The position numbers were made by a program, and so were the translations under genes. The notes under the pieces were generated by a model. It saw only the letters and a program-made list of their open reading frames with translations. It was not told the origin of the DNA and searched no databases. Shown here in pieces: positions 18,685 to 64,000 of a stretch of DNA of 64,000 bases. This DNA comes from an uncultured Methanosarcinales archaeon. GTDB taxonomy: Archaea; Nanobdellota; Nanobdellia; Woesearchaeales; CAIVOO01. Positions within the stretch are counted from its first letter, which is position 1; each line of letters begins with the position of its first letter. Location of the stretch: positions 12,720 to 76,719 of the forward strand of contig CAZAIK010000006.1 of NCBI GenBank assembly GCA_964485195.1, given 5' to 3'.

Positions 18685-19601
18685 AACTGAAAATACTAAG
18701 CATATCAAAAACAGAAAAAGGTTCACGGGATTTACCAAACCAGTTTAATGAAGATGTAAGGCCCGACCTGATAAAGCGGGCTGTGATGAGCCTGCAGTCA
18801 AACTCGAGGCAGAGGTATGGCGCTTACCCCAGGGCAGGGCTGGAACATCATGCCAAGATTTCAAGAAGAAGGAGTGCCTACAAAGGCGCTTACGGTCACG
18901 GCATTTCAAGGGTTCCCAGGAAAATACTGAGCAGGAGCGGCTCGCATTTCAACTGGGAAGGTGCAGTGGCACCAAATACCGTGGGGGGAAGAAGAGCCCA
19001 CCCCCCGAAAGCTGAGAAGGAATGGGGGCAGAAGATAAACAAAAAAGAAAACAGGAAGGCCATCAGGAGCGCAATTGCAGCAACTCTCAATAAGGAACTG
19101 GTTGAGGCAAGAGGCCATAAGATGCCTGTTCAGTACCCTTTCATCCTTGAAACAAGAATAGAATCAATATCAAAAACCAGCGAAGTCATTAATGCTCTGG
19201 AAAAATTGGGATTCGGCGAAGAGCTGGGGAGGTCCAGGAAAAAAATAAGGGCCGGGAAAGGAAAGACCAGAGGAAGGAAATACAAGAAAACAAGGGGGAT
19301 GTTAATAATCTCTTCGCAAAAATGCGAGCTGCAAAAAGCAGCAAAAAGCATAACAGGGGTGGAGGTCATCGACGTCAAAACCTTAAACGCTGAGAGCCTA
19401 GCGCCCGGGTCCATCCCCGGGAGAATGACAATCTTCACTGATTCCGCCATAGAAATGCTGGAAAAGGAAAAGCTCTTCTCGGATGAAAGAAAAAAAGCCG
19501 AGAAACCAGAACCGTCCAAGGCAAAGAATAGAAAAACATCTGAAAAGGAAACAGTAAAGAAGAAAACAAAAAAAACAGTGAAAAAGGAGACTAAGAGATG
19601 A
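18681..19601 (+). CDS. rpl4: 50S ribosomal protein L4 (uL4), K-rich C-terminal tail
   Basis: 306 aa. 4-nt overlap with L3; canonical position; lysine-rich low-complexity extension. Confidence 0.85.
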   Translation: MKLKILSISKTEKGSRDLPNQFNEDVRPDLIKRAVMSLQSNSRQRYGAYPRAGLEHHAKISRRRSAYKGAYGHGISRVPRKILSRSGSHFNWEGAVAPNTVGGRRAHPPKAEKEWGQKINKKENRKAIRSAIAATLNKELVEARGHKMPVQYPFILETRIESISKTSEVINALEKLGFGEELGRSRKKIRAGKGKTRGRKYKKTRGMLIISSQKCELQKAAKSITGVEVIDVKTLNAESLAPGSIPGRMTIFTDSAIEMLEKEKLFSDERKKAEKPEPSKAKNRKTSEKETVKKKTKKTVKKETKR

Positions 19602-19849
19602 GAGTTATAAGCTATCCGCTATCAACAGAGAAATCCATTCGTATGATGGAATCAGACAACACACTCGTTTTCATAGTGGACCGGCAGGCCAAGAAGGAGG
19701 ATGTAAAGAAAGAGGTTGAATCCATGTTCAAGGCGAAAGTTATCAAGGTCAGAACAGCTGTGCTGCCAAGCGGGAAAAAGAAGGCTTATGCCAAAATAAG
19801 CCCGGAAACCCCGGCGATAGACATTGCAACGCAGCTGGGAATGGTATAA
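19598..19849 (+). CDS. rpl23: 50S ribosomal protein L23 (uL23)
   Basis: 83 aa. Canonical position between L4 and L2. Confidence 0.85.
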   Translation: MRVISYPLSTEKSIRMMESDNTLVFIVDRQAKKEDVKKEVESMFKAKVIKVRTAVLPSGKKKAYAKISPETPAIDIATQLGMV

Positions 19850-19850
19850 A

Positions 19851-20561
19851 ATGGGAAAAAACCTGATACAGCAAAGGAGAGGGAAGGGAACATTTGTTTC
19901 CAGGACGCCCAACCACAGGTATGCGGGAAAGACAACATATTCCCAGATATCTGAAGGGGGGGTTGAAGGGAAAATAACAGACATAAAGCACTGTCCTGCT
20001 CATTCAGCTCCTCTGCTGGAGATATCCCTGGGGAGCGGAAAGAAGATTTTCATGATAGCCCCTGAAGAAAAAAGGGTGGGGGACATTATCACTTTTGGAA
20101 ATGAGACAAACATGAGTTCAGGAAATGTCTTGTCGTTAAAAAGCATACCTGAAGGCACCGAGATATTCAACATAGAATCAAATCCAGGGGATGGAGGCAA
20201 ATTCGTAAAGGCAGGAGGAAACTTTGCAAGGATAGTTTCAAAAGGAAAGGATTCTGTCACTGTACTTTTGCCTTCAAAAAAGAAGAAGAAATTCAACATC
20301 AACTGCAGGGCAACAATAGGGAGAGTGGCAGGAACAGGAAGACTGGAAAAGCCCCTACTAAAGGCAGGGAAGGCTTTCCATAAGAGCAGGGCCGTCAACA
20401 ACCGCTGGCCGGTTGTCCGCGGAAAGGCAATGAATGCTGTTGCCCATCCTCACGGAGGAAAAAGGTCTTCCAAGAACTTCACGCTTATAGTTCCAAGGAG
20501 CGCTCCTCCCGGCGCAAAAGTCGGGAAGGTAGCTGCAAGAAAAACAGGCAAAAGGAAGTAA
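19851..20561 (+). CDS. rpl2: 50S ribosomal protein L2 (uL2)
   Basis: Internal start [13 protein letters not shown]; C-terminal [14 protein letters not shown]...HPHGGG-like motifs. Confidence 0.9.
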
Positions 20562-20563
20562 AA

Positions 20564-20947
20564 ATGGCAAAGAAAGAATTCAGATACAAAGGAAAGGCAA
20601 TGGAAGAGCTGAAAAGCATGAGCGTAGATGAATTTATGAAAATAGTCCCTTCAAGGATAAGGAGAAGCTTAAAACGCGGAATTCCTGAGCAGCATAAAAA
20701 AGTGCTGGAAAAAGTGAGGAAAGGGAAGAAAAACATCAAAACCCATTGCAGGGACATGGTAGTGTTTCCTGAAATGGTAGGGCACGTCATTAAGATCCAT
20801 ACGGGAAAGGAATTCATGCCTATTACAATCCAGGAGGGGATGATAGGGCATATGCTTGGTGAATTAGCCATGACAAGGAAAAGGATAGCCCACAGCTCTC
20901 CGGGTGTAGGCGCCACAAAATCGAGCGCATCAATGTCATTGAAGTAA
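20564..20947 (+). CDS. rps19: 30S ribosomal protein S19 (uS19)
   Basis: 127 aa. [11 protein letters not shown]...GHMLGEFA signature. Confidence 0.9.
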
Positions 20948-20948
20948 G

Positions 20949-21488
20949 ATGAAACAAAAATACGCATTCCAGAAATTCAAGGAGGATAAGATGGCAAAAG
21001 CGTTAGGCAGAGATCTTGCCATATCCACAAAACACTCTGCCATGATATGCAATGCCATTAAGGGAAAAAGCGTGGAAAGGGCCAGGACCATCCTGACCGA
21101 AGCTATTAACTTGAAAAAGGCAATACCCTTCACAAGGTTCAACAGTGACAGGGGCCACAAATCCAAGATAGGCCCAGGAAGGTTTCCTGTAAAAACCTGT
21201 TCAGGAATACTTAAGGTATTAAATTCAGCAGAAGCAAACGGCCATCAGAAAAACCTGAGCAATATGCACGTCGTCCACGCTTGCGCCCATCTTGCTTCAA
21301 AGCCAATGCATTTTGGCAGGTGGAGAAGGAGGGAGATGAAAAGAAGCCACATAGAAATTGTTTTGTCAGCGAAAGAGGAGAAAACAAAACAGGAGAAAAA
21401 ACCAGAAAAGGCAGAGGGAAAAAAGGAACTGCCGGAAAAGGAGAAAGAGACTGAAAAGGAAAAAAAGGCAAACAAACAAGATGATTGA
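20949..21488 (+). CDS. rpl22: 50S ribosomal protein L22 (uL22), KE-rich tail
   Basis: 179 aa. Canonical position; C-terminal K/E low-complexity tail. Confidence 0.85.
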   Translation: MKQKYAFQKFKEDKMAKALGRDLAISTKHSAMICNAIKGKSVERARTILTEAINLKKAIPFTRFNSDRGHKSKIGPGRFPVKTCSGILKVLNSAEANGHQKNLSNMHVVHACAHLASKPMHFGRWRRREMKRSHIEIVLSAKEEKTKQEKKPEKAEGKKELPEKEKETEKEKKANKQDD

Positions 21489-22311
21489 AAGGAAATTCAT
21501 AAAACATAATGTAACTGAGCAGAGAATCAAGGAGTATGTAAATAACCAGCTGGGAAGAGCCGGAATCGGCAAGATAAAACTTCATTTGACTCCCTTAGGG
21601 GAAAAAATTGTTGTTCATTCATCAAACCCCGGATTGGTTGTTGGCAAGGAAGGAAGCAACATAAAGGAAATGACCCGCTTGTTAAAGAAAAATTTCAAGC
21701 TTGAAAATCCCCAGATAGAAATCAGCGAAGTGCGGGACCCCAACAGCAATGCGCAGATAGTGGCTGACAGGGTTGCCGGAGCGCTGGAAAGGTATGGTTC
21801 AGGCAACTTCAAGGGGATTATGCACAGGTCAATAAGGGACATACTCAACGCAGGAGTTAAAGGGGCTGAGATTGTGATTTCAGGAAAACTACCTGGAAGC
21901 AGGGCAAAAAGATGGAGAATACTCTCAGGCTACATGAAGAAATGCGGGGACATAGCAATAGCTGATGTTGATTTTGGCATAGCTATCGCCAAATTAAAAA
22001 GCGGGGTTGTGGGAGTGAAGATCAAGATTATGCCTTCTAACATAGTGCTCCCTGATACAATAATCATCCCTGAAGGGGAAAGGACAGAAGTAACAGAGGA
22101 AGAGGAACCTCAAAAGGGCGCGGACGAAAAAGAGAAAATAAAGGAAGAAGCTGAAGAGGAAGTTAAGGAAGCCAAAGCTGATAAAGCAGAGTCCAAGACG
22201 AAGAAGAAGAAAACCGCTGCTAAAAAAACCAAGAAGAAGAAAACCGCGAAAAAGCAGGCTAAAAAAAATGGCAAAGCAGATAAAAAACCTGAAGGGACTG
22301 ACGAAAGCTGA
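21481..22311 (+). CDS. rps3: 30S ribosomal protein S3 (uS3), K-rich tail
   Basis: Internal ATG (MIERKFIKHNV...) within ORF 21358..22311; KH domain GKIKLHLTPLGEKIVVH...VVGKEGSNIKE. Confidence 0.9.
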   Translation: MIERKFIKHNVTEQRIKEYVNNQLGRAGIGKIKLHLTPLGEKIVVHSSNPGLVVGKEGSNIKEMTRLLKKNFKLENPQIEISEVRDPNSNAQIVADRVAGALERYGSGNFKGIMHRSIRDILNAGVKGAEIVISGKLPGSRAKRWRILSGYMKKCGDIAIADVDFGIAIAKLKSGVVGVKIKIMPSNIVLPDTIIIPEGERTEVTEEEEPQKGADEKEKIKEEAEEEVKEAKADKAESKTKKKKTAAKKTKKKKTAKKQAKKNGKADKKPEGTDES

Positions 22312-22492
22312 ATTAAAAAGCAAGCTAAGCGAGTTGAAACTTGAGCTTATCAAGCTCAACGCGCAGGTAGCTACAGGCACTTCGCCCAAGAACCCTTCAC
22401 AGCTTAAGGATACCAAAAAAACTATCGCAAGGATCAATACTTTGCTAACCCAAAAAGAGGAGGAACCAAAGAAAAAGAAGAAAGAACAATGA
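22268..22492 (+). CDS. rpl29: 50S ribosomal protein L29 (uL29)
   Basis: 74 aa. LKGLTKAELKSKLSELKLELIKL helical signature. Confidence 0.8.
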   Translation: MAKQIKNLKGLTKAELKSKLSELKLELIKLNAQVATGTSPKNPSQLKDTKKTIARINTLLTQKEEEPKKKKKEQ

Positions 22493-22815
22493 ACGAAATA
22501 TGCAACAAATGCGGACTCCCAAAAGAGCTCTGCGTGTGCGAAGACATCGCAAAAGAAAGCCAGAAGGTTACAATAAAGAAGGAAAAAAGAAAATTCGGCA
22601 AGATGTACACAATAGTGGAAGGCATTGACCCAAAGGAGATCGACGTGAAAGCGCTGGTGAAGAAACTTAAAAATAAACTTAGCTGCGGAGGCAGCTTCAA
22701 GGAGGGAAGAATAGAACTGCAGGGTGATCATATGCCAAAGCCGGGAAAGCCGAAAGATGTCAGAACTGTGCTGGTGGAAAGCGGTTTCGCGCCAGAGACC
22801 ATAATAATCAAGTAG
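22489..22815 (+). CDS. translation initiation factor aSUI1 (eIF1 homolog)
   Basis: 108 aa. N-terminal CNKCG...CVC then SUI1 fold (GKMYTIVEGI...GRIELQGDH); canonical position after L29. Confidence 0.8.
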   Translation: MNEICNKCGLPKELCVCEDIAKESQKVTIKKEKRKFGKMYTIVEGIDPKEIDVKALVKKLKNKLSCGGSFKEGRIELQGDHMPKPGKPKDVRTVLVESGFAPETIIIK

Positions 22816-22816
22816 C

Positions 22817-23047
22817 ATGAAGCAAACACTCATAGGGAAGTTTGTAAGGGCAGTAAATGCCAAAAACCCCTCCCTTCAGGGAATTGAAGGAAAGGTGGTG
22901 GATGAGACCAAAAATACGATAACAATAAGAAAAAAAGACAAGCAGGAAAAAAGGATGATAAAAAAACAGGTAACCCTGGCTGTTGACGGCAAAGTCGTAG
23001 AAGGAGCGGAACTTACGAAAAGGATTGAAGAGAGAATGAAAAAATGA
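22817..23047 (+). CDS. RNase P protein component Rpp29 (Rnp1)-like
   Basis: 76 aa. Sm-like KFVRAV...IEGKVVDETKNTITIRK; canonical slot between SUI1 and S17. Short for Rpp29. Confidence 0.5.
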   Translation: MKQTLIGKFVRAVNAKNPSLQGIEGKVVDETKNTITIRKKDKQEKRMIKKQVTLAVDGKVVEGAELTKRIEERMKK

Positions 23048-23367
23048 AAAAAACAATAGGATTTGGGATAAAAACCCCTGAAAAAGAATGCAATGACAAG
23101 CATTGTCCTTTTCATGGGCAGCAGCCTGTGAGGGGGAGGTCCTTTGTGGGGATAGTGACCAATATCAAAATGAGGAGAAGCCCCACGGTGGAGTGGGAGA
23201 GATGGAAATACATTCCCAAATATGAAAGATTCAGGAAAGCAAGGACAAAAATAAAAGTTCACAATCCCGAATGCATAGATGCTAAGGAAAATAGTAAGGT
23301 AAGGTTAATGGAAACCAGGGCTATAAGCAAGACCAAGAATTTCGTGATAGTGGAGGTTTTGGAATAA
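23044..23367 (+). CDS. rps17: 30S ribosomal protein S17 (uS17)
   Basis: 107 aa. CNDKHCPFHG Zn motif, canonical position. Confidence 0.85.
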   Translation: MKKTIGFGIKTPEKECNDKHCPFHGQQPVRGRSFVGIVTNIKMRRSPTVEWERWKYIPKYERFRKARTKIKVHNPECIDAKENSKVRLMETRAISKTKNFVIVEVLE

Positions 23368-23769
23368 ATGCTGGCAACACCTTCAAGAATAACAAGAGTG
23401 CTGCCTCACGGCGCATACCTTAATGTATGTGACAATTCAGGCGCCAAAGTAATCAAATTAGTGTCTGTAAAGAGAGCAAAAACTGTTAAGGGAAGGTACC
23501 CTTCAGGTGGTGTGGGCGACATGATACTTGCATCAGTGAAAAAAGGAAGGCCAGAGATGAAGAAACAGGTGGTCTTCGCAGTCATAGTAAGGCAAAAAAA
23601 AGAATATAAAAGGCCTGACGGGACAAGGGTCAAGTTTGAAGACAATGCCGCTGTAGTGCTAAAAGACGACAAAGGCAATCCGAAAGGAACAATATTCAAA
23701 GGACCCATTGCCAAGGAAGTTGTCAAGAAATGGCCTGCTGTGGCAAAAGTTGCAAAGGTGATTGTGTAA
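23368..23769 (+). CDS. rpl14: 50S ribosomal protein L14 (uL14)
   Basis: 133 aa. VCDNSGAK signature. Confidence 0.9.
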   Translation: MLATPSRITRVLPHGAYLNVCDNSGAKVIKLVSVKRAKTVKGRYPSGGVGDMILASVKKGRPEMKKQVVFAVIVRQKKEYKRPDGTRVKFEDNAAVVLKDDKGNPKGTIFKGPIAKEVVKKWPAVAKVAKVIV

Positions 23770-23770
23770 A

Positions 23771-24157
23771 ATGACAGATTTTTCCAAAGGATGGAACAGA
23801 AGCAAGCAGCCGAGAAGGCAGAGAAAATACATATTCAATGCCCCTTATCACACAAGACACAAATTCCTGACCGCCAAAGTCGCAGAAGAGCTTTCAAAAA
23901 AACAGGGCATTAAAAAAATTCCCATAAGAAAGGGGGACAAGGTCAAGATTTTAAGGGGGCAGTTCAGGGGAAGGACAGGTAAAGTAAGCGGGGTAAGCCT
24001 GGTTGACTCAAAGATTTTTATAGAGGGGCTTGAAAGGACCAAAATTGATGGTTCAAAAGCGCCATATCCTGTAACGCCCTCAAACGTGAGCATTACCGAG
24101 TTAAACACGGAAGACAAAAGAAGATTCAAGCGAGGTAAAAATGAAAAATCAGCTTAA
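23771..24157 (+). CDS. rpl24: 50S ribosomal protein L24 (uL24, KOW)
   Basis: Internal ATG (MTDFSKGW...) of ORF 23762..24157; KOW motif KGDKVKILRGQFRGRTGKV. Confidence 0.85.
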   Translation: MTDFSKGWNRSKQPRRQRKYIFNAPYHTRHKFLTAKVAEELSKKQGIKKIPIRKGDKVKILRGQFRGRTGKVSGVSLVDSKIFIEGLERTKIDGSKAPYPVTPSNVSITELNTEDKRRFKRGKNEKSA

Positions 24158-24842
24158 CTCTCTGGCTGCGCCCAGGACGTGGAATATTCGGAGAAAAAAA
24201 GAAAAGTTTACCATGAAGCCGAAGGGGCCGCACAAGCTGGAAAACAGCATAGCTATTGGAACTTTATTCAGGCAGTATCTGAAAAATGCAAAGACTTCCA
24301 GAGAGGTAAAGGATATCATAAACTCAAAAGGTGTTTTGGTGAACGGCCACAAGGTAAAAGATGTCTCTTTCGGTGCCGGTCTTATGGACTTAGTTGAAAT
24401 CCCTGGATTAAACAAGAAATATATTATACTGATAAACAGGAAGGGCAAGCTGTGCCTGGTGGACACCGAACTCGACACTAAAATTGCCAAGATATCCGGA
24501 AAGAAAAAAGTAAACGGGAAAATCCAGCTGAATCTTTTCGGAGGAGATAACCTGATAGTTGAAAAAGATGAATCCAAGGTGGGGGACAGCGTGTTGCTGG
24601 ATCTCAAGTCAGGAAAGATAAAGGACAGCATGAAGCTTGCAGAGGGTTCTGCGTGCATTTTGCTGGGAGGAAGCCACATAGGGGAGTTTGGGACTGTAAA
24701 AGAGGTTGACAACAAGAAGATTACAATCATAGGGAAGGATAAAACAGAATTTGAGACCCTCAAAAAACTTGTTTACATAGTCGGCAAAAAAGAGCCACTA
24801 ATCAAAATAAAAAATGAATTTGATGAAAAAAGTGGAAATTGA
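24141..24842 (+). CDS. rps4e: 30S ribosomal protein S4e
   Basis: 233 aa. LAAPRTWNIRRKKEKF N-terminal S4e signature. Confidence 0.85.
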   Translation: MKNQLNSLAAPRTWNIRRKKEKFTMKPKGPHKLENSIAIGTLFRQYLKNAKTSREVKDIINSKGVLVNGHKVKDVSFGAGLMDLVEIPGLNKKYIILINRKGKLCLVDTELDTKIAKISGKKKVNGKIQLNLFGGDNLIVEKDESKVGDSVLLDLKSGKIKDSMKLAEGSACILLGGSHIGEFGTVKEVDNKKITIIGKDKTEFETLKKLVYIVGKKEPLIKIKNEFDEKSGN

Positions 24843-25329
24843 AAAGCTCACCCTTAACATAGGGGCTGGCAAGTCGCGGGACAGGCTGGAAAAAGGGGTC
24901 AAATTGCTAAAGGCAATTACGAATGTGGAACCTGTCAAGACTTATGCCAAGAAGAGGATTCCCGGATGGGGAGTGCGGCCCGGACTGCCTGTCGGCTGCA
25001 AGATGACTATAAGAAAAGGCAAGATGCAAGATATTATAACTTCGCTGCTTAAGGCAAAGGATAACATTTTGGAACCTTCAAATTTTGACGACGAAGGCAA
25101 CATAGCTTTTGGAATTCACGAATACATAGACATCCCCGGCCTAAAATACGATCCGGACATCGGGATTATGGGCCTTCAGGCATGCATAACACTCAGAAGG
25201 AAAGGGTACAGGATAAAGAGCAGGAAAGAGAAAAAAAGGAAGATTCCCGCAAAGCACAGGATAAACAAAGAGGAAGCTGTAAGTTTTATGGGGGAAAATT
25301 TTGGAGTTAAGCTGAAGGAGGAACAATGA
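24823..25329 (+). CDS. rpl5: 50S ribosomal protein L5 (uL5)
   Basis: Internal start [16 protein letters not shown] of ORF 24814..25329. Confidence 0.85.
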
Positions 25330-25556
25330 GTTCAAGCGACTATAAAAAAGCCATGAATCAGCTAAACGCAAAGCCTGTAAAGGCAAAGAAGTACCTGAAG
25401 CACTGCTCCCCAAAAGAGAGGGCCACAGGAATAGCAAAGAAAAAGTGTTCCAGGTGCGGCAGAGTTGGGGGCCACGTTAAGAAGTATGGTCTTGATTTTT
25501 GCAGGCACTGCTTTAGGGAGATTGCACAGCAGATAGGATTCAAAAAATTCAGGTAA
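25326..25556 (+). CDS. rps14: 30S ribosomal protein S14 (uS14, Zn-type)
   Basis: 76 aa. CSRCGR...CRHCFRE zinc ribbon; canonical slot. Confidence 0.75.
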
Positions 25557-25948
25557 TGAAAATGATGAACGACATATTATCAAATGTATTGTCAAAGGTG
25601 TTGGCATACGAAAGAAACAGCAAAAAGGACTGCGTGGTCAAGTCTTCGGCCACGATAAAAAAGGTAATGGAGATACTGCAGAAAAACGGTTATATAGGCA
25701 GTTTTGAAGAAGTTCAGAGCATAAGGGGGGATAACCTCAAGATCAATCTCATCGGGAACATCAACAGGTGCGGGGTTATAAAACCGCGATTCAGCCTTAA
25801 GTTCAAGGATTTCATAAAGTTTGAAAACAGGTACCTTCCTGCCCAGGATTTCGGGGTTTTAATAGTCTCGACGTCCCAGGGGATAATGGAGCACCAGGAA
25901 GCCAAAGAAAAAGGGGTTGGAGGAAGACTGATAGCTTACTGTTACTAA
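25556..25948 (+). CDS. rps8: 30S ribosomal protein S8 (uS8)
   Basis: 130 aa. MNDILSN...GRLIAYCY ends like archaeal S8. Confidence 0.85.
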   Translation: MKMMNDILSNVLSKVLAYERNSKKDCVVKSSATIKKVMEILQKNGYIGSFEEVQSIRGDNLKINLIGNINRCGVIKPRFSLKFKDFIKFENRYLPAQDFGVLIVSTSQGIMEHQEAKEKGVGGRLIAYCY

Positions 25949-25949
25949 A

Positions 25950-26474
25950 ATGAAAGCATTGGAAAGAACTGTGGATTTGGGAGAAACCAGCGCTCAGGCA
26001 GAGAATAATAATATAATCATAACAGGACCGGAAGGCAAAATAGAGAGGACTTTCAGGGAAAAGCTTATAGAACTCTCTGTTAAGGACAATGCCCTGACTG
26101 TAAAAGCGCTGAAACCCACCAGAAAAGCAAAAAGGATAATGAATGCCGTGACGGCACATCTGAGGAATATGGTGAAGGGAGTGACGAAGAAATATTCATA
26201 CAAACTAAAAATCTGCTCAGGCCATTTTCCAATGAATGTTTCACTTTCCGGAAACGGGATCGCGGTGAAGAACTTCATAGGGGAAAAACACGACAGAAAA
26301 AAGAAGATAAAACAAGATGTTGAGCTAAAGCTTGAGAAGGATATTATAACTGTAACAGGGATTGACAAGGAAAAAACCGGGCAAGCTGCTGCAGAAATTG
26401 AAAAGCTGACCAGGATAAAGAACAAAGACAGAAGAATCTTTATGGACGGAATTTACATAATACAAAAGCCTTAA
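25950..26474 (+). CDS. rpl6: 50S ribosomal protein L6 (uL6)
   Basis: 174 aa. Canonical slot. Confidence 0.85.
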   Translation: MKALERTVDLGETSAQAENNNIIITGPEGKIERTFREKLIELSVKDNALTVKALKPTRKAKRIMNAVTAHLRNMVKGVTKKYSYKLKICSGHFPMNVSLSGNGIAVKNFIGEKHDRKKKIKQDVELKLEKDIITVTGIDKEKTGQAAAEIEKLTRIKNKDRRIFMDGIYIIQKP

Positions 26475-26475
26475 A

Positions 26476-27063
26476 ATGAAAAAACTACTGGAACTAAAAC
26501 AGGGAATGAAGAGGAAAAAACCGGATTTCACCAGAACAGACTCCCACAAGAAGGGCAAGCTGAAAGAAGGTTGGAGAAGGCCAAAAGGCCATCAGAACAA
26601 GATAAGGCTTCATAGGAAAGGATACAAGGACAAAGTGAACGCGGGCTACAGGACACCCCAACTTGTTAGATATCTGGAAAAAACCGGGCTGAAAAAGGTT
26701 ATAGTGAGCAATATAAAAGACCTGGCCAGCATAGACATCAAAACTGAAGGTGCCCATATCGCCGGAGTAGGATTGAGGAAAAAGATGGACATCATAAGGA
26801 AGGCGCTGGATAATAAAATACCAATTCTCAACATAAAGTATCCTGAAGCTTTTTTGAGAAAAGCGGAGGAAGGAATAAAACAGAGGAAAGAAAGGAAAAA
26901 GAGCAAGGAAATGAAAAGGAAGGAGAAAGAGAAAACCAAGGGGGAGAAAAAGAAGAGAGTGGAAGAAAAAGAGAAAGAAAAGACAGAGGAAGAGTTCAGC
27001 GAAGAAGAGAAGGAAAAACAGGAAAGGAGAGAAAAGGAAAAATTGCTGATTAAGAAACAGTAA
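26476..27063 (+). CDS. rpl32e: 50S ribosomal protein L32e with long KE-rich C-terminal extension
   Basis: 195 aa. N-terminal L32e core (GWRRPKGHQNKIRLHRKGY); about 70-aa K/E repeat tail. Confidence 0.8.
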   Translation: MKKLLELKQGMKRKKPDFTRTDSHKKGKLKEGWRRPKGHQNKIRLHRKGYKDKVNAGYRTPQLVRYLEKTGLKKVIVSNIKDLASIDIKTEGAHIAGVGLRKKMDIIRKALDNKIPILNIKYPEAFLRKAEEGIKQRKERKKSKEMKRKEKEKTKGEKKKRVEEKEKEKTEEEFSEEEKEKQERREKEKLLIKKQ

Positions 27064-27064
27064 A

Positions 27065-27595
27065 ATGAGACTTAAAACACAGAAAAGGATAGCTGCAGAC
27101 GTCATGAAGTGCTCGCCGAAACGGGTGAAATTTGACGGCACCAAGCTCAAGGAGATAAAAGAGGCCATAACAAAAGCAGATATCAGGGGGATGATAATTG
27201 ACAAATTCATCCAGAAGGAAAGGAAAAAAGGAATCAGCAAAAGCCGAGCAAGGCTCATCAGGGAACAAAAAGTGAAAGGAAGAAGAAAAGGGCACGGCTC
27301 AAGAAAAGGGAAAAAGACAGCAAGAACCCCAAAGAAAACAGAGTGGATGAACAGGGTAAGGCTTCAGAGGGATGTTATCAGCGAGTTAAAGCAGAAAGGT
27401 AAGATTGGGAATGATGTTTACTGGGACTTATACAGAAAAATAAAGGGAGGCTTTTTCAGAAGCAAAAGGCACCTTCAGATTTTCATAATTGAAAAGAAAT
27501 TGAGCAGGGAAGTCAAAAAACCAGAGCCTGTGAAGAAGGCTGAAAGGCCAAGAAAGAAGGCTAAAAAAACAACTAAAAAGAAAAGCGAAAGATGA
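27065..27595 (+). CDS. rpl19e: 50S ribosomal protein L19e
   Basis: 176 aa. MRLKTQKRIAADV...KRVKFD signature; K-rich tail. Confidence 0.8.
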   Translation: MRLKTQKRIAADVMKCSPKRVKFDGTKLKEIKEAITKADIRGMIIDKFIQKERKKGISKSRARLIREQKVKGRRKGHGSRKGKKTARTPKKTEWMNRVRLQRDVISELKQKGKIGNDVYWDLYRKIKGGFFRSKRHLQIFIIEKKLSREVKKPEPVKKAERPRKKAKKTTKKKSER

Positions 27596-28116
27596 ACACA
27601 AGATATACTGTGAAATTCAGAAGAAGAAGGGAAGGAAAGACAGACTATCACAGGAGGGTAAAGCTCCTGACTTCCCAAAAAAGCCTGTTGGTATTCAGAA
27701 AGCTTTCCAGAACATTAATCGGGCAGATAACGCAGTTCAACCCAAAAGGAGACAAGATATTGGTTAATGTCAACTCTAAAGAGCTTGAAAAATACGGCTG
27801 GAAGCTTAGCAAGAAAAACACTCCCGCTGCATACTTGACCGGATTTTTAATCGCAAAGAAGGCAGGAAAATCCAAAGCAGGCAATCTTATCGCAGATTTC
27901 GGAATAATCAATCCCACCAAAGGCTCGGTCAAGTACGCCTTTTTGAAGGGAGCATCAGATGGAGGGCTGAATGTCATGCATTCCCCTGACTTTTTCCCAG
28001 AAGAAAACAGGATAAAAGGAGAGCACATCGCTTCATATTCCTCAAATCCAGAATACAAAAACATAACAAGAATTTTCGAGGAAGTCAAAAGCAAGATAGA
28101 GAGTCAAAATGGTTGA
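27592..28116 (+). CDS. rpl18: 50S ribosomal protein L18 (uL18)
   Basis: 174 aa. RRRREGKTDYHRR N-terminal signature. Confidence 0.85.
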   Translation: MNTRYTVKFRRRREGKTDYHRRVKLLTSQKSLLVFRKLSRTLIGQITQFNPKGDKILVNVNSKELEKYGWKLSKKNTPAAYLTGFLIAKKAGKSKAGNLIADFGIINPTKGSVKYAFLKGASDGGLNVMHSPDFFPEENRIKGEHIASYSSNPEYKNITRIFEEVKSKIESQNG

Positions 28117-28915
28117 AGAAGAGAAAAAAGAAGAAATGGAAAAAGAAGGAGAAACAGAAGAAAACGAGGAAGTAATGGAAGGGGCCGAGGAGATTGCAAA
28201 AGAAAAAAAGCCTCAGCAGGTGATTGAATTTGCTGAATGGGACCCTAAAACAGAAATAGGCAGAAAAGTAAAGAATGGGGAGATTGTTAATATTAAGGAA
28301 ATATTGGATGAGGGCAAGATAATAAAGGAAACCCAGATAGTTGACATCCTTCTTCCGGACCTGGAGACAGACCTTCTCCTTATAGGCCAGGCCAAAGGAA
28401 AATTCGGGGGAGGAAAGAGAAGGATATTCAGGCAGACCCAAAAGAAAACAAGAGAGGGTAACAAGCCACATTTCATGACCCTTGCTGTTGCAGGAAACAA
28501 GGATGGATATGTGGGAGTGGGTGCAGGCAAGTCGAAAGAGACTGTTCCTGCCAGGGAAAAGGCCTACAGAAGGGCCAAGCTTAATATGCTCAAAATAAGA
28601 AGAGGTTGCGGCTCATGGCAGTGCGGATGCAAAACCGGGCATTCCATACCTTTCAGGGTGAAGGGCAAGTGCGGGTCTGTAGAAATAGAATTGATACCTG
28701 CCCCCAAAGGAACAGGGCTAAAAGTTGAGAAGGAATGCCAAAAAATCCTGAAACTGGCAGGCATAACAGATGTTTGGTCAAAAACCCGGGGAAAAACAAC
28801 CACAAAGATCAACGTAATGTACGCCTGCCTGGACGCTCTTAAAAATCTGATGAAAACAAAAGTAAAACCTGAACACTATGAAGTTTTAGGAATGGTAGAG
28901 GGGATTCAAAAATGA
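28109..28915 (+). CDS. rps5: 30S ribosomal protein S5 (uS5), acidic N-terminal extension
   Basis: 268 aa. FMTLAVAGNKDGYVGVGAGKSKE signature. Confidence 0.85.
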   Translation: MVEEEKKEEMEKEGETEENEEVMEGAEEIAKEKKPQQVIEFAEWDPKTEIGRKVKNGEIVNIKEILDEGKIIKETQIVDILLPDLETDLLLIGQAKGKFGGGKRRIFRQTQKKTREGNKPHFMTLAVAGNKDGYVGVGAGKSKETVPAREKAYRRAKLNMLKIRRGCGSWQCGCKTGHSIPFRVKGKCGSVEIELIPAPKGTGLKVEKECQKILKLAGITDVWSKTRGKTTTKINVMYACLDALKNLMKTKVKPEHYEVLGMVEGIQK

Positions 28916-29265
28916 AGCTTGCAGTGATACGGATAAAAGGGGATATCGGACTTAATGAGGATGCAAAGAAAACTTTTCGCATGCTTAATTTAAACAAGAA
29001 ATTCGCCTGTTCTGTGCTGGAAGACAACCCGGTAAACAAAGGGATGATAAGAAAGATAAAAGATTTCAGCACCTATGGGAATGTTAGTGAAGAAACACTC
29101 GCGCTTCTCAAGAAGAAAGAAAAAGAAGGCCAGAAGTGTTATAATCTCCACCCTCCAGTAGGCGGTTTTGAAAGGAAAGGAACCAAGAAGTCCTTTAACG
29201 CGGGAGGCGCTCTAGGAGAAAGGGGAGACAAAATAAATGACCTTATCAAGAGGATGCTCAAATGA
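28912..29265 (+). CDS. rpl30: 50S ribosomal protein L30 (uL30)
   Basis: 117 aa. MKLAVIRIKGDIGLNEDAKKTFRMLNL signature. Confidence 0.8.
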   Translation: MKLAVIRIKGDIGLNEDAKKTFRMLNLNKKFACSVLEDNPVNKGMIRKIKDFSTYGNVSEETLALLKKKEKEGQKCYNLHPPVGGFERKGTKKSFNAGGALGERGDKINDLIKRMLK

Positions 29266-29720
29266 CAGTGAATAAAAGAAAGAAAAACAGCAGGCACAGG
29301 GGAAGCTGGACCCATGGCTGGGGCGAAAAGAAAAAGCACAGAGGTGCCGGAAGCCGAGGGGGCAGGGGAAATGCCGGCTCAGGGAAAAAAGGCGATTCCA
29401 AGAAACCCTCCATATGGAAGAATCCCTCATATTTCGGAAAGAAAGGTTTCAAAAGCAAGAATTTCAGGAAGTTTGTGGGGCAGAACACAGGCTACTTAGA
29501 GAAAGGCCTGGATAAATTACTGGAGAAAAACCTGATTTCAAAAGAAAATGATGTTTACTCAGTTGATTCAAGAAAATTAGGCTTTAACAAGCTCTTGGGC
29601 AGGGGGAAGGTAAAGCGTAAGTTTAAAATAGAAGTGCCCTTTGCTTCCAAAAAGGCCATACAGGTAATAAAAGAGGCTGGCGGTTCAGTGAGCTGTGAAA
29701 AGGCAGAACAAAAAGAATAA
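29262..29720 (+). CDS. rpl15: 50S ribosomal protein L15 (uL15)
   Basis: 152 aa. G/R-rich N-terminus RHRGSWTHGWG...GRGNAGSG. Confidence 0.85.
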   Translation: MTVNKRKKNSRHRGSWTHGWGEKKKHRGAGSRGGRGNAGSGKKGDSKKPSIWKNPSYFGKKGFKSKNFRKFVGQNTGYLEKGLDKLLEKNLISKENDVYSVDSRKLGFNKLLGRGKVKRKFKIEVPFASKKAIQVIKEAGGSVSCEKAEQKE

Positions 29721-29731
29721 AGGGGTGTTGA

Positions 29732-31114
29732 ATGGCATTTAACTGGTTATACAATTTTCCAGAAGTAATATCTCCTTCTCAGAAAAGGCTTGCTTTCAAG
29801 GAGAAACTCAAGTGGACATTAATCATTCTTATCCTTTTTTTCGTTCTGGGACTGGTGCCTCTCTTCGGACTTGGAACAAACGCCCTGCAGCAGTTTGAAT
29901 ATCTGTCAGCCATACTGGCAGCAGAGTTCGGCTCCATAATCTCTTTGGGAATTGGTCCAATCGTGACTGCATCCATTGTTCTTCAATTACTGAATGGTTC
30001 AGGAATGCTGAGGTTTGACCTGACCAGTGAGGAGGGCAAGAAGAAGTTTCACGGGGTTCAGAAGTGGCTGTCTGTATTTTTTGTGGTATTTGAAGCAATA
30101 GTGTATGTTTTTATGGGAGGGCTTGCTCCTCCTGAGGCTTTGGCAGGAACCCCCACATATACGTCGCTCCAGTTTCTCCTGATATTCCAGCTGTTCCTGG
30201 GGGGTATTATGATAATGCTGATGGATGATGTCATAAACAAGTGGGGCTTTGGGTCCGGAGTTTCATTGTTCATCGCAGCAGGGGTTTCCAAGCAAATAAT
30301 TGTCAGGGCATTCAACCCCCTGCCTTCACCCACAAACCCTGAGGTGGCTGCAGGGGCAATCCCGGCGCTTGTGCAGCATCTTTCTGCTGGGGAGCCCACC
30401 GCTGCCCTGCTTTTGCTGGCAGGCCTGATAGCCACGGCAGCTGTGTTCGCGCTTGCGGTTTTTGGCCAGGCTATGAAGGTGGAAATACCCTTATCCTTTG
30501 GAAGGGTGAGAGGGTATGGTATAAGATGGCCCTTGCAGTTCATATATACCTCAAACATACCTGTAATACTAATTTCAGCGCTTATAGCCAATGTGCAGCT
30601 TTGGGCAAGGCTTTTCCAGAACTGGGGATATCCCCTGCTCGGAACTTTCGTGGGGAACACCCCTGCCACTGGTATTGTCTCTTGGCTTTTTGCACCCAAT
30701 ATAGTAGAAAAGATTATCACTCAAAGCCTGACTCTCGCTAATGTCGGACAGGCAGCGTTCTACATGCTTTTCCTTGTGGCAGGAAGCGTAGTTTTCAGCA
30801 TCTTCTGGGTACAGACATCTGGAATGGACGCCCGCTCCCAGGCAAGGAATATTATGTCTTCAGGCCTGCAGATCCCCGGATTCAGAAGGGATGAAAGGGT
30901 TTTGGAGCACATCCTAAAAAGATATATAGGACCTCTCACAATAATGGGTGCAATACTGGTGGGTATCCTTGCAGGAATAGCAGATTTGTCAGGCGCCCTG
31001 GCTCACGGCACAAGCATACTGCTTGCTGTTATGATCATATACAAGCTTTATGAAGAGATAGCAACGCAGCATATGTATGACATGAACCCTATGCTAAGAA
31101 AATTTATGGAATAA
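29732..31114 (+). CDS. secY: preprotein translocase subunit SecY
   Basis: 460 aa, 10 TM. Canonical end of the cluster; GIGPIVTASIVLQLL and plug region present. Confidence 0.9.
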   Translation: MAFNWLYNFPEVISPSQKRLAFKEKLKWTLIILILFFVLGLVPLFGLGTNALQQFEYLSAILAAEFGSIISLGIGPIVTASIVLQLLNGSGMLRFDLTSEEGKKKFHGVQKWLSVFFVVFEAIVYVFMGGLAPPEALAGTPTYTSLQFLLIFQLFLGGIMIMLMDDVINKWGFGSGVSLFIAAGVSKQIIVRAFNPLPSPTNPEVAAGAIPALVQHLSAGEPTAALLLLAGLIATAAVFALAVFGQAMKVEIPLSFGRVRGYGIRWPLQFIYTSNIPVILISALIANVQLWARLFQNWGYPLLGTFVGNTPATGIVSWLFAPNIVEKIITQSLTLANVGQAAFYMLFLVAGSVVFSIFWVQTSGMDARSQARNIMSSGLQIPGFRRDERVLEHILKRYIGPLTIMGAILVGILAGIADLSGALAHGTSILLAVMIIYKLYEEIATQHMYDMNPMLRKFME

Positions 31115-60027: not shown

Positions 60028-60135
60028 TTTAACGCCTCCTTTTTGTTTTAAAACCGCTTTAAATATAAAATTTTCTTTTTAAATATTAAAATCTATCGTT
60101 TTTAAACAAATTATTTACTTTATAGAAAATAATTA

Positions 60136-60951
60136 TTACTTCAGGGTTTTCCAGGCCTTTTCAAATAGGGCATTAATAGAAGATGAGAGAAAAGGGGAGT
60201 TTATCCATACTCCGGAATCGTATGTGGGGTGAACTTGAGAATCATCTGAAATCATAAAGGTTGTGTGTTTTCCATCTATTACCACAAACCTTCCCTTAAT
60301 TTCGTCCGAGGTCCTGATTTCTGCCACACCTTTGAGCTCCTTTTCTATCCCTTGGTATTTTGAGTCTTCAGGTATTATTATCTTTATCTTCACGCCTTTG
60401 TTTTTGGCCTTTAAGAGGGATTTTTTAAGGGACTCTGATTTTCTTTTTATACCTTCATTTGAAGTGACCATTAAAACAGATTTTTCACTGTCCTTTATTG
60501 CGGAATCAAGGTGATTATATAAGTTGTGGCGGCCTTTAATGGCTCCTGAGATGTCCACGGGATCTATTAAATCCATGCCCTGTGAATGTAGGTTTTTTAG
60601 CTCTTCTATTGTCTTTGAGCTTTTTATTTTTTCAAGGGACGCAACCTGCTCTTTCGTGTCTTTTTCAACCCTCTTTTTGACTCTCTCAATAACCTCTGAT
60701 GGTTGAACAGCGATGTACTTGATTGGCTTACCGACCTTCATAATTATAAATCCTTTTTTCTCCAGGCTTTCCAGAACGTCATAACTCCTGGACCTGGGAA
60801 CGTTGGCAATGTCAGAAAGCTCACCAGCAGTGGAAACACCCCTGGAAAGCAAAGCTACCCATAACCTAGCTTCATAACTGTTAAGACCCAAATCCTTAAG
60901 TTTCTTTAAAAACTCCTGTTTGATAAGCATTTTGTCCTTTTTCAACGTCAA
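60136..60951 (-). CDS. TrmB-family transcriptional regulator (paralog B)
   Basis: 271 aa. Same architecture as 52956..53768; identical 36-aa HTH. Confidence 0.7.
   Translation of the reverse strand: MTLKKDKMLIKQEFLKKLKDLGLNSYEARLWVALLSRGVSTAGELSDIANVPRSRSYDVLESLEKKGFIIMKVGKPIKYIAVQPSEVIERVKKRVEKDTKEQVASLEKIKSSKTIEELKNLHSQGMDLIDPVDISGAIKGRHNLYNHLDSAIKDSEKSVLMVTSNEGIKRKSESLKKSLLKAKNKGVKIKIIIPEDSKYQGIEKELKGVAEIRTSDEIKGRFVVIDGKHTTFMISDDSQVHPTYDSGVWINSPFLSSSINALFEKAWKTLK
60755..60850. repeat. inverted copy of the 96-bp identical segment at 53048-53143
   Basis: Reverse complement matches paralog A exactly; flanks diverge. Confidence 0.6.
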
Positions 60952-60989
60952 TTAACCACAACTAGTATTTAAATGTTTTTATTTTTACT

Positions 60990-61217
60990 CTTATATAGTG
61001 ATAAATAACAACATAACCACCCTGTTGTTTCCTTTGGAAATTTCATTTAAATAAAAACTATTTTTTTAATAATAATATTTTTCTATATAGAAAATAATAT
61101 AAAAAAGAACCTTCATTCTTAAAATCATTACTTCCATAAGAAACAAAGGGGGCAGTAAATACCAAAATTATATAAACAACCCATTTCTTATGGAAAACGA
61201 ACAAAGAGGGGTTTAAC
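60990..61217. promoter_or_regulatory. candidate replication origin (oriC): ORB-like elements flanking an AT-rich unwinding region upstream of orc1/cdc6
   Basis: ORB-like TTCCTTTGGAAAT (inverted, about 61020-61045), about 85-bp >85% AT stretch, then TTCCATAAGAAACAAAGGGGG (about 61133-61155) and TTCTTATGGAAAACGAACAAAGAGGGG (about 61188-61214), similar to archaeal ORB consensus TCCA-N-TGGAAA...GGGG. Confidence 0.5.
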
Positions 61218-62417
61218 ATGAGCAAGGCTTCAGAAATTTTTGAGGGTTTTCTTTCTAAAAATTCAATATTCATTGATAAAAAAGTGTTGCAGGCCAACTA
61301 CACCCCCGAAAACATACCGCACAGGGAAGAGCAGATAGAGCAGATAGCGAAAATATTGGCCCCTGTTTTGAGATTGGATAAACCCTCAAACCTTTTTATA
61401 TATGGTAAAACAGGAACCGGAAAAACACTTTCTGTTATTCACACTACCAACAAAATAAAACAACTGGCAGACGAAAGAGAGATACCCATAAAGATAATAT
61501 ACCTAAACTGCAAACTAAAGAAAATAGCTGACACTGAATACAGATTAATAGCCCAAATAGTGAGAGAGTTGGGCAAGGAAATAGCAATCACGGGCCTGCC
61601 CACGGACGAGGTCTACAAATATTTTTTTAATATAATTGACCAGAAAAGACAGCTTATGGTCCTTATACTTGATGAAGTGGATCAACTTATAAAAAAAACA
61701 GGCGACGAAGTCCTTTACAATTTAACCAGGATAAACACAGATTTAAAAGAATCGCAAATTAGTGTTATCGGAATTTCCAATGATTTGATATTTACAGATT
61801 CATTGGATCCCAGAATAAGGTCCTCCCTGTCTGAAGAGGAAATAATGTTCAAGCCCTACAACGCGCTACAGATCCAAGACATACTAAGGGAAAGGACAGA
61901 AAAGGCACTTAAAAAAAACACGATAAAGCAGGGAGCGATAGCAAAATGCGCAGCATATGCTGCCAGAGAACACGGCGACGCAAGAAGAGCATTAGAACTC
62001 TTAAGGGTCGCAGGGGAACTCGCGGACAGGGAAGGTGCCGGAGAGGTGGCAATAAAACACCTTGACGAGGCCGAAGAAAAGTTAGAGAAAGACAGGATAG
62101 TGGACATTGTGACCTCGCAACCCAAGCAGTTCCAGGCCATCCTCTATTCAATCCTTCTTTCCTCTGCCAAAAAAAACAAAATATTTGAAACAGGAGACTT
62201 ATACAATACATACAGGAAAATATGCACTAACATTAACTTAAGACCGCTGACCCAGAGGAGAGTCTCGGACATAGTGGGAGAACTTGATATGTTGGGGGTT
62301 ATAAACGCTAAAACAATTTCTAAAGGAAGGTATGGCAGGACAAGGGAGATATCATTGGCAATAAATCAAGCAACAGAACAGAAAGTAATGGAAATTATTG
62401 AGAAGGAAATATATTAA
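61218..62417 (+). CDS. cdc6: Orc1/Cdc6 replication initiator
   Basis: 399 aa. Walker A GKTGTGKT, Walker B VLILDEVD, C-terminal winged helix. Confidence 0.9.
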   Translation: MSKASEIFEGFLSKNSIFIDKKVLQANYTPENIPHREEQIEQIAKILAPVLRLDKPSNLFIYGKTGTGKTLSVIHTTNKIKQLADEREIPIKIIYLNCKLKKIADTEYRLIAQIVRELGKEIAITGLPTDEVYKYFFNIIDQKRQLMVLILDEVDQLIKKTGDEVLYNLTRINTDLKESQISVIGISNDLIFTDSLDPRIRSSLSEEEIMFKPYNALQIQDILRERTEKALKKNTIKQGAIAKCAAYAAREHGDARRALELLRVAGELADREGAGEVAIKHLDEAEEKLEKDRIVDIVTSQPKQFQAILYSILLSSAKKNKIFETGDLYNTYRKICTNINLRPLTQRRVSDIVGELDMLGVINAKTISKGRYGRTREISLAINQATEQKVMEIIEKEIY

Positions 62418-63845
62418 ATGGATGAGTTAAACGAAAAGAAAAAAGCAGTAGAAGTATTGATAAACAATAATTTTATGGTAGACAATGAAATTTTATTAAA
62501 ACTTGAAAAGCAGGAAACTCTTCAGGAGATTTTGGCACTCCCTCCAGAAACAACTGAACAGGAAATAAAAGACATATTGTTCCCCCCTTCAAAAGATGTT
62601 AAAATAATAAAGTCTTACAAGGAAGTGGGAAGGAAACGAAAAGTTGATGATTTTATTGCTTATTTCAATACAAGATACCAGAGACTGAAGGAAATCCTTC
62701 AGAAAAAACAGGAACTTCAGGAAGCCATTTCAATTAAAAGGGTGCTGGACAAGACAGAGAAGGAAAATATCACCATAATAGGTATGGTGTATGAAAAGAA
62801 CTTAACTAAAAACAACAACATTATGCTTACGCTGGAAGATCCCACAGGCCGCATAAACGTGGTGGTAAACAACAGGAAATCAGACCTTTTCAGAATAGCG
62901 CAGGATTGTGTCTGCGACGAGGTTATAGGTTTGGTGGGGGCGTGCGGCAGCAACGTCATATTTGCAAACAGCATAGTCCTCCCCGAAATACCCCCAACCA
63001 AGGAGCTGAAAAAGGGCCCCAACGACTGCTATGCGGTGTTCACGGGAGACCAGCACGTGGGAGCAGACCAGTTCCTGAGGGAAAAATTTGACAATTTTAT
63101 AGCATGGCTAAACTGTGAAGTGGGAAGCGAGGAGCAGAAGGAAATAGCTAAGAAGACCAAATACCTGTTTTTGGTTGGAGATCTCGTAGACGGCGTAGGA
63201 ATACACCCTGCACAGTTTGACCAGCTCGAAATAAAGGATGTGAAGGAACAATATTCAAAACTTGCTGAAGAGCTCCAGAAAATTCCAGGAAGCATAGAAA
63301 TTGTGGTGTGCCCGGGCAACCACGACGCCTTGCGGCTCATGGAACCTCAGCCCTCCCTGAACTATGATTATGCAGGCAAATTACAAGAAATGCCAAATGT
63401 GCATATGGTAAGCAACCCCGCTGTGGTAAACATAGATTCAACTGAGAATTTTGATGGCTTTGATATACTGCTGTATCACGGGGCCAGCTTCCACTACTAT
63501 GCTGAAAATGTTGCAAGCATAAGCAGCGAAGGCGGGGCAACCAGGGCGGACCTCATAATGAAATTTTTGCTTCAGAAAAGGCATTTGGCGCCTGAGCACA
63601 CCTCGGTGACCTATTCTCCCAGGGCAGAAGAGGACCCGCTACTGATAGAATCAGTGCCGGATTTTTTTATAACAGGACATATCCACAGGTCCACCATTTC
63701 CACATACAGAAACATCACACTGGTTAACTGCTCGTGCTGGATAGGCATGACAGACTTTCAGGAAAAAGTGGGGCTGGTGCCTGAGCCAGGAAGAGCGGTC
63801 GCAGTTAATCTCAGGACCAGGGAAACAAAGGTAATCAAGTTTTAG
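62418..63845 (+). CDS. DNA polymerase II (PolD) small subunit DP1
   Basis: 475 aa. OB fold plus calcineurin-like phosphoesterase motifs VFTGDQHVG, GDLVDG, GNHD, GHIH. Confidence 0.85.
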   Translation: MDELNEKKKAVEVLINNNFMVDNEILLKLEKQETLQEILALPPETTEQEIKDILFPPSKDVKIIKSYKEVGRKRKVDDFIAYFNTRYQRLKEILQKKQELQEAISIKRVLDKTEKENITIIGMVYEKNLTKNNNIMLTLEDPTGRINVVVNNRKSDLFRIAQDCVCDEVIGLVGACGSNVIFANSIVLPEIPPTKELKKGPNDCYAVFTGDQHVGADQFLREKFDNFIAWLNCEVGSEEQKEIAKKTKYLFLVGDLVDGVGIHPAQFDQLEIKDVKEQYSKLAEELQKIPGSIEIVVCPGNHDALRLMEPQPSLNYDYAGKLQEMPNVHMVSNPAVVNIDSTENFDGFDILLYHGASFHYYAENVASISSEGGATRADLIMKFLLQKRHLAPEHTSVTYSPRAEEDPLLIESVPDFFITGHIHRSTISTYRNITLVNCSCWIGMTDFQEKVGLVPEPGRAVAVNLRTRETKVIKF

Positions 63846-63849
63846 GAAA

Positions 63850-64000
63850 ATGCAGGGCACATCATCGCATATGGAAAGTTATTTTGAGGGGTTGTTAAAA
63901 AAAACAAGCGAAGCCTATGCCGTGGCTGAAGCTGCCAGGAAAAAGGGCTACGATCCTGAGGAAACCACAGACATCCCTTTAGCTAAGAATATGGCTGAGC
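63850..64000 (+). CDS. DNA polymerase II (PolD) large subunit DP2, N-terminal fragment (continues beyond window)
   Basis: MQGTSSHMESYFEGLLKKTSEAYAVAEAARKKGYDPEETTDIPLAKNMAE matches the conserved DP2 N-terminus (...ARSKGYDP...IPLAKD...). Confidence 0.6.
   Translation, partial: MQGTSSHMESYFEGLLKKTSEAYAVAEAARKKGYDPEETTDIPLAKNMAE

Follow-up and report, generated by a model that had tools for sequence, protein, structure and literature searches.

The DNA analysed here, called the window, is a stretch of 64,000 nucleotides from the genome of a Woesearchaeota-like (DPANN) archaeon. A gap between two divergent genes near the right end of the window contains a candidate origin of replication. On its left, the gap is bounded by a gene for a TrmB-like transcription regulator (60136..60931, minus strand; Pfam TrmB HTH, 9.7e-21), which falls outside the proposed origin mechanism. 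On its right is an orc1/cdc6 initiator gene of the Orc1-1 class (61218..62417, plus strand), whose product is matched by the Pfam families Cdc6_C, Cdc6_lid and AAA. This gene is followed on the same strand by the gene for the small subunit of DNA polymerase D (DP1; 62418..63845; Pfam DNA_pol_E_B, Metallophos and OB-fold), and then by the N-terminal start of the large-subunit gene (DP2; ~63850..64000), which is cut by the end of the window. The same DP2 gene on another contig, L001, matches PolC_DP2_N with a value of 1.8e-69. Thus, the downstream order of cdc6, PolD small subunit and PolD large subunit given in an earlier note on this DNA is borne out by the Pfam matches and by the DP2 start at ~63850. 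The orc1-DP1-DP2 order is conserved in many relatives, and synteny of the trmB-like gene with orc1 is limited to three close relatives, the metagenomic contigs L013-L015.

The earlier note gave the gap a length of 266 bp, based on a mechanical ORF call that starts the trmB-like gene at TTG 60951. The gap does exist upstream of orc1, but its length is better put at ~286 bp. In the alignment with L013-L015, an ATG at 60931 (protein MLIK...) is conserved, and judged from this alignment the trmB-like gene probably starts there and not at the TTG. Neither Rfam families at the gathering threshold nor tRNA genes were found in the gap or anywhere in the 64 kb.

Among public contigs, only L001 (3.6 kb, from the Logan assembly of SRR7048220) encodes an identical Orc1. 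It begins inside the gap and corresponds to the window from 60974 onward, which indicates that short-read assembly breaks in the A/T-rich region of the candidate origin. Elsewhere in the window, 48 kb from the gap, positions 11438-13645 encode a Hef-type protein with DEAD/Helicase_C domains, an ERCC4 nuclease domain and HhH motifs.

Boxes, A/T-rich spacer and promoters in the gap

The gap carries three ORB or mini-ORB elements with a TTCC...GAA core, located at 61027-61039 (minus strand), 61132-61144 (plus strand) and 61183-61195 (minus strand), and here termed boxes A, B and C. Box A (61017..61040, minus strand) consists of the dyad core TTCCAAAGGAAAC (61027-61039), followed by AACA and then by the G-run GGGTGG (61017-61022). 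On the plus strand it reads CCACCCTGTTGTTTCCTTTGGAAA (61017-61040), which is the reverse complement of TTTCCAAAGGAAACAACAGGGTGG, a string quoted in the earlier note. Box B (61132..61152, plus strand) reads TTCCATAAGAAACAAAGGGGG, in which the core TTCCATAAGAAAC (61132-61144) is followed by AAA and by GGGGG. All of the strings that had been quoted are present in the gap; the one assigned a minus orientation corresponds to A, and the first of the two assigned a plus orientation corresponds to B.

Boxes A and B are 21-24 bp in length, are oppositely oriented and form an inverted repeat (20 nt, 80% complementary). Their cores lie 92 bp apart, the full span from A to B is 136 bp, and both G-runs face outward, away from the A/T-rich spacer between the boxes. 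The G-run of box A is weak in the present genome (GGGTGG), whereas the corresponding runs in L013-L015 are longer (G6-7). The distance from the core to the start of the G-run is 3-4 nt here and 1-4 nt in relatives, which carry runs of G5-G7.

The spacer is predicted to be a duplex-unwinding element, or DUE (61041..61131, 88-89% A+T). The earlier note described a stretch of about 85 nt with more than 85% A/T, and measurement gives 89.4% A+T for the 85 nt from 61040 to 61124, 87.8% for the A-to-B spacer at 61042-61131 and 57.7% for the window. The segment 61040-61124 ties for second most A+T-rich 85-mer in the 64 kb. Likewise, 61045-61105 is the second least stable 60-step stretch, with -55.0 kcal/mol compared to a window mean of -79.5 (sd 5.5). 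The only less stable stretch is at 13685, and the most A/T-rich stretch of the window is found at 13687-13771. This alternative DUE was rejected because it lies inside an ORF and encodes a hydrophobic segment rich in Ile, Leu and Phe. None of the three ORB matches of at least 14 bits (matrix described below) is near it, and the only match in its vicinity is one of 12.7 bits ~160 bp downstream. A search for a hairpin or cruciform in the DUE found a single-strand fold that is no better than that of shuffled sequence (z = -0.41).

The centre of the DUE is occupied by a perfect 16-bp palindrome, TTTTCTATATAGAAAA (61079..61094), which lies 39 bp from the core of box A and 37 bp from the core of box B. 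When the window is aligned with L013-L015, all four genomes show its consensus, TTTTC[A/T]ATAT[A/C]GAA[A/G]A, and each of the three contigs contains a single exact match to it. The corresponding distances are 42 and 39 bp in L014, and L013 carries insertions.

The 13-mer TATAGAAAATAAT (61086-61098) overlaps the right half of the palindrome and has three exact copies in the window, where 0.18 are expected. All three are intergenic, and the motif copies are located at 17447-17467, 60114-60133 and 61079-61099. A 20-mer, TTTCTATATAGAAAATAATA, is common to the DUE centre and to a site ~235 bp upstream of a ribosomal-protein operon. At the corresponding location, L013-L015 lack the copy found at 60114. 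The repeated 13-mer may be a factor-binding or promoter motif, or it may reflect lineage-specific spread.

Box C (61183..61195, minus strand) has the core TTCCATAAGAAAT, reads ATTTCTTATGGAA on the plus strand and ends 22 bp upstream of the orc1 ATG. Its core is identical to that of box B at 12 of 13 positions, and the two boxes form a perfect 12-nt inverted repeat. Because box C comes without a conserved G-run, it is classified as a mini-ORB. The earlier note had proposed a third box on the plus strand, based on the string TTCTTATGGAAAACGAACAAAGAGGGG (61185-61211) with AAAGAGGGG as its G-string. This string is present and its core is conserved in four of four genomes, but a minus-strand reading fits the box better. 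The supposed G-string is the Shine-Dalgarno sequence GAGGGG of orc1 (61206..61211, plus strand), which is positioned 6 nt upstream of the ATG. In the four genomes, AAAGAGGGG aligns with a region that varies in both length and sequence and that always includes, 5-8 nt upstream of the ATG, a motif of the GGAGG or GAGG type. A plus-strand G-string at this place was therefore rejected.

Two promoters are also predicted in the gap. The orc1 promoter (61157..61177, plus strand), predicted from the archaeal TATA consensus, consists of a BRE-like element AAATACCAAAA and the TATA box TTATATAAA (61168-61176). The block AAATAC[C/A]AAAA-TAT[A/T]TAAA is conserved in all four genomes, with the distance from TATA to box C fixed at 5 nt, and boxes B and C bracket and converge on this conserved TATA box. 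Given the usual distance between TATA and start site in archaea, orc1 transcription is expected to begin at ~61196-61200, at the edge of box C. If Orc1 bound at box C also occupies the DNA on the 3' side of the box, its footprint would include the TATA box. This geometry, with B and C converging on the same element, suggests negative autoregulation, such that Orc1 probably represses its own gene through box C together with box B. DnaA boxes in the dnaA promoter follow a comparable logic (PMC3936714).

The second predicted promoter/operator block (60966..61000, minus strand) belongs to the trmB-like gene. It includes a TATA box, ATTTAAATA (60966-60974), and a TACT-N7-AGTG palindrome (60986-61000) that we take to resemble operators of the TrmB family. 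The block is nearly invariant among the four genomes, all of which share the same TACT and AGT half-sites (TACT-N7-AGT(G/A)). The palindrome looks like an element for autoregulation of the trmB-like gene that is separate from the origin.

Abundance and conservation of the boxes

To score the boxes, a position matrix was built only from the boxes of the three related contigs L013-L015, with the window excluded. Among ~128,000 positions on both strands of the window, this matrix ranks box C first (23.2 bits), box B second (19.2 bits) and box A fourth (14.2 bits). Three matches of at least 14 bits thus lie inside a 170-bp segment. Simulation did not reproduce this cluster: in 300 Markov-simulated windows there was never more than one match per 200 bp, and among 20,000 simulated 266-mers that keep the dinucleotide composition of the gap itself, not one has two or more matches. 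The exact sequence TTCCANNRGAAAC occurs twice in the 64 kb, both times in the gap.

Relatives of the Orc1 protein are encoded at 11 genomic and 18 metagenomic loci, which were identified by protein-guided scans. The closest named relatives are Candidatus Woesearchaeota MAGs, whose Orc1 proteins are 58-65% identical. The contigs L013-L015 are closer, with Orc1 proteins that are 78-79% identical, and exhibit the gene order TFE, IF-2B-family protein, TrmB-like regulator, gap, Orc1, DP1, DP2. Identity of the flanking IF2B-family protein (Pfam IF-2B) has fallen to 38-45% among these relatives. When the four gaps are aligned, mean column identity is 61% and the box cores are nearly invariant; in box B, the columns TTCCAT..GAAA and GGGG do not vary at all. 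The conserved islands are, from left to right, the trmB-like TATA box and palindrome, the core and C-run of box A, the mid-spacer palindrome, the core and G-run of box B, the BRE/TATA block, the core of box C (which is kept in all three relatives) and the orc1 start. The inverted pair is ~92-97 bp apart in three of the four genomes.

The association of the boxes with orc1 extends beyond these close relatives. In 26 further orc1 loci, the matrix finds 30 matches in 16 kb upstream of orc1 and 37 matches in the remaining 291 kb, so that the 700 bp preceding orc1 have a 14.5-fold higher motif density than the rest of these loci. In these loci, boxes on the minus strand are distal to orc1, boxes on the plus strand are proximal, and the 3' tails are G-rich. 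The earlier note held that an absence of such boxes upstream of cdc6 in related genomes would speak against an origin; they are found in L013-L015 and are enriched in the broader set.

A second DPANN lineage (L005, L008 and L022-L024), with Orc1 proteins ~50-52% identical and with a named member labelled Aenigmatarchaeota, has the same layout of A on the minus strand, B on the plus strand and C on the minus strand. Its inter-ORB spacer contains a strongly conserved block of its own, GAACAACC-N6-8-TTCTTATAACAATGTTATT, which is partly palindromic and includes an ATAAC...GTTAT inverted repeat. This block is located at 9740-9780 in L005, 6810-6850 in L008, 300-340 in L022, 9775-9815 in L023 and 2050-2090 in L024.

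Another contig, L021, carries two sets of tandem repeats at 73-600, directly 5' of its orc1 match. The first set has A-rich units of ~47 nt, and the second has units of ~24 nt of the type GACAGGAAATCTGACTCAAATATT. These repeats may encode a repetitive extension at the N-terminus of Orc1, or they may be DNA repeats of the iteron type.

The initiator and the predicted origin

Comparison of the encoded Orc1 with proteins of known structure yields S. solfataricus Orc1-1 (2QBY_A; E = 2.7e-101) and A. pernix ORC1 (2V1U; 2e-88), both of which were solved on origin DNA. Both matches far exceed those to Orc1-3 or to paralogues of the ORC2 type. Judged by its sequence, the encoded protein is an initiator of the Orc1-1/oriC1 class. 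In S. solfataricus Orc1-1, mutation of G120/L121 in the ISM, of R341 in the HTH or of R365 in the wing weakens origin binding (PMC3089459). Residues Gly126-Leu127 of the ISM, Arg347 of the HTH and Arg371 of the wing in the present protein align with these positions, and the wing motif GRYG[K/R]T is kept. For 206 complete Nanobdellota genomes, ORC1/Cdc6 is reported to be a core gene present in one copy (preprint 10.64898/2026.05.13.725050), which favours a single origin linked to orc1.

The inverted ORBs with outward G-runs, the A/T-rich DUE between them, the Orc1-1-class neighbour and the orc1-DP1-DP2 gene order together support the proposal of the earlier note that the gap is a probable oriC. 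We estimate a probability of roughly 0.8 that it is an oriC1-type chromosomal replication origin of this Woesearchaeota-like archaeon, a prediction made from sequence.

By analogy with Sulfolobus, Aeropyrum and Pyrococcus, we infer the following course of Orc1 binding, MCM loading, melting, firing and autoregulation. Orc1 monomers produced from the adjacent gene would bind box A on the minus strand and box B on the plus strand, and would thus be seated in opposite polarity. In each case, the winged-helix domain would contact the TTCCA-N3-GAAA(C/T) core, and the initiator-specific motif of the AAA+ domain would contact the flanking G-run. The pair of Orc1 proteins in the ATP form would then recruit the MCM helicase onto the 92-bp spacer of ~88% A/T, which would melt and permit bidirectional replication. 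Box C would be a third Orc1 site, set opposite box B with the orc1 TATA box between them; a footprint on box C would cover both TATA and the transcription start and probably lead to repression of orc1.

Strand composition was also considered. Raw cumulative GC skew in the window tracks gene orientation. Third-position skew, when split by gene strand, is noisy in the window and in 18 loci, and the 10-kb flanks of the relatives are inconsistent. At four-fold sites, the replication component in the 61 kb to the left of the gap is 0.019 (95% CI -0.02 to 0.064), which is approximately zero, and only 2.8 kb is available to the right. GC skew is uninformative at this site and provides evidence neither way. 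A ribosomal-protein/SecY operon (L3, L4, L2, S3, S4e, L6, S5 ... SecY; 17701-31114, plus strand) points toward the putative origin from 30 kb away, and a leftward fork from the gap would meet it head-on. This is a weak counter-argument because co-orientation bias is weak in archaea.

The boxes could also be genuine Orc1 sites that serve only or mainly as operators. In that case Orc1 bound at B, C and perhaps A would control orc1 and might also control the divergent trmB-like gene. Replication would begin at another place or through recombination, and the gap would be a dormant or vestigial origin. The convergence of B and C on the orc1 TATA box at a TATA-to-C spacing fixed in four genomes is what such operators would be expected to show. 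The head-on operon and the missing skew signal in the 61 kb to the left can be counted on the same side. Moreover, some archaea, among them Thermococcus kodakarensis and origin-deleted Haloferax, make little use of the oriC next to orc1 or can do without it, so a canonical sequence does not prove that an origin is used. However, regulation alone leaves box A unexplained, as well as the conserved inverted A/B pair with its outward G-runs and extreme A/T spacer. The geometry of the boxes is retained in lineages that differ in where the TATA box lies, and orc1 is single-copy in the phylum. Nor are the two roles exclusive, since autoregulation and origin function coexist at the bacterial dnaA-oriC region (PMC3936714). 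We therefore consider an exclusive or main use of the boxes as operators to be improbable.

It is very improbable that the gap is just an ordinary A/T-rich divergent promoter whose boxes are sites for the TrmB-like regulator or another transcription factor, or are chance matches in low-complexity DNA: the gap does contain two TATA boxes and a palindrome like a TrmB operator, and the motif core is short and A/T-rich, but simulations with the composition of the gap never gave two or more matches, the core matches biochemically validated Orc1 sites, and binding by the neighbouring TrmB-like regulator was rejected because the boxes track orc1 and are present upstream of it in loci that have no trmB-like gene within flanks of up to 10 kb.

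Significance and comparison with known origins

Genomes of DPANN archaea have been "rotated to ORC1/Cdc6," so that the origin is assumed from the position of orc1 (preprint 10.64898/2026.05.13.725050). In the literature consulted on the phylum, where orc1 serves as a proxy for the origin, we found no description of origin cis elements. The present locus and its relatives yield a conserved element map for Woesearchaeota-like genomes. This map comprises an ORB consensus of the 22-bp class, TTCCAT[A/G]AGAAA[C/T]-N1-4-G5-7, an inverted pair of such ORBs, a palindrome centred between them and a mini-ORB close to the orc1 promoter. It could anchor the start coordinates of genomes, guide growth-rate estimates from read depth and provide substrates for biochemical work on Orc1 from an uncultivated lineage. 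The candidate origin extends a known mechanism without challenging it, and should be regarded as a sound but ordinary prediction that is not surprising.

The gene order oriC-cdc6-dp1-dp2 is that of Pyrococcus abyssi and P. furiosus, in which the first archaeal origin was mapped (PMC1904270). On the G-rich strand, the ORBs to which Cdc6/Orc1 binds in P. furiosus have the sequence TTCCAGTGGAAATGAAACTCTGGGGGG, in which TTCC and GAA are invariant, and they are arranged as an inverted repeat with A/T-rich regions (PMC1904270). When aligned with these validated ORBs, boxes A and B match the TTCC...GAA core and the G-run downstream of it. TTCC and GAA are kept in register, with 10 of 13 core positions shared by box A and 9 of 13 by box B. 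However, the Pyrococcus G-run begins 8 nt past the 13-bp core, compared with 3-4 nt in the present locus. Pyrococcus also differs in having numerous additional mini-ORBs and in carrying another cluster of ORBs within dp1. A Thermococcales-type cluster of this kind was not found here, since none of the 15 best matrix matches (down to 10.5 bits) falls within 62418-63845. The match nearest dp1 is a weak one of 11.2 bits at 62315, inside orc1.

The ORBs of Aeropyrum pernix oriC1 belong to a 22-bp class (PMC1904270). The closer placement of the G-run in the present locus gives an element of 21-24 bp that resembles this class, and the encoded initiator matches the A. pernix structure 2V1U. Whereas A. 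pernix oriC1 has four ORBs in two inverted pairs, the present locus has one inverted pair and a promoter-proximal mini-ORB.

Haloarchaeal origins are similar in having inverted ORBs that end in a G-run and adjoin a cdc6 gene, and the G-strings of H. hispanica oriC1 are essential (PMC3936714; PMC3528665). However, haloarchaeal G-strings are longer, and haloarchaea have many orc paralogues and origins, whereas orc1 is single-copy in the present lineage.

The likeness to oriC1 of Sulfolobus/Saccharolobus extends to the whole unit. Both have the same class of initiator and three Orc1 sites, two of which are inverted around an A/T-rich DUE. In both, this unit is ~130-136 bp in length, is located directly upstream of orc1 and contains a conserved short motif midway in the DUE. 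The boxes differ in length, being 21-24 bp in the present locus and 36 bp in Sulfolobus. In S. islandicus, the ORB3-DUE-ORB2 unit of 130 bp is essential, and so for firing is the 11-bp ucm found midway between ORB2 and ORB3 (PMC12141716). The ucm is bound by an abundant protein, UBP, whose more than 300 binding sites are mostly close to promoters (PMC12141716). The central palindrome TTTTCTATATAGAAAA is not the ucm itself, as it bears no similarity to the 11-bp sequence ATTATACAAAC.

The palindrome is the sole feature of the locus that goes beyond a textbook origin. It might be a site for an accessory origin factor, and thus a DPANN counterpart of ucm/UBP by position and role, with an unrelated sequence and probably an unrelated protein. 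This proposal is tentative and on balance doubtful, although the separate inter-ORB block of the second lineage and the recurrence of TATAGAAAATAAT at two other intergenic sites point toward it. This recurrence is reminiscent of the many sites bound by UBP. If it is true, archaeal origins in general would have a lineage-specific third component between their ORBs, and such a component would not be a crenarchaeal peculiarity.
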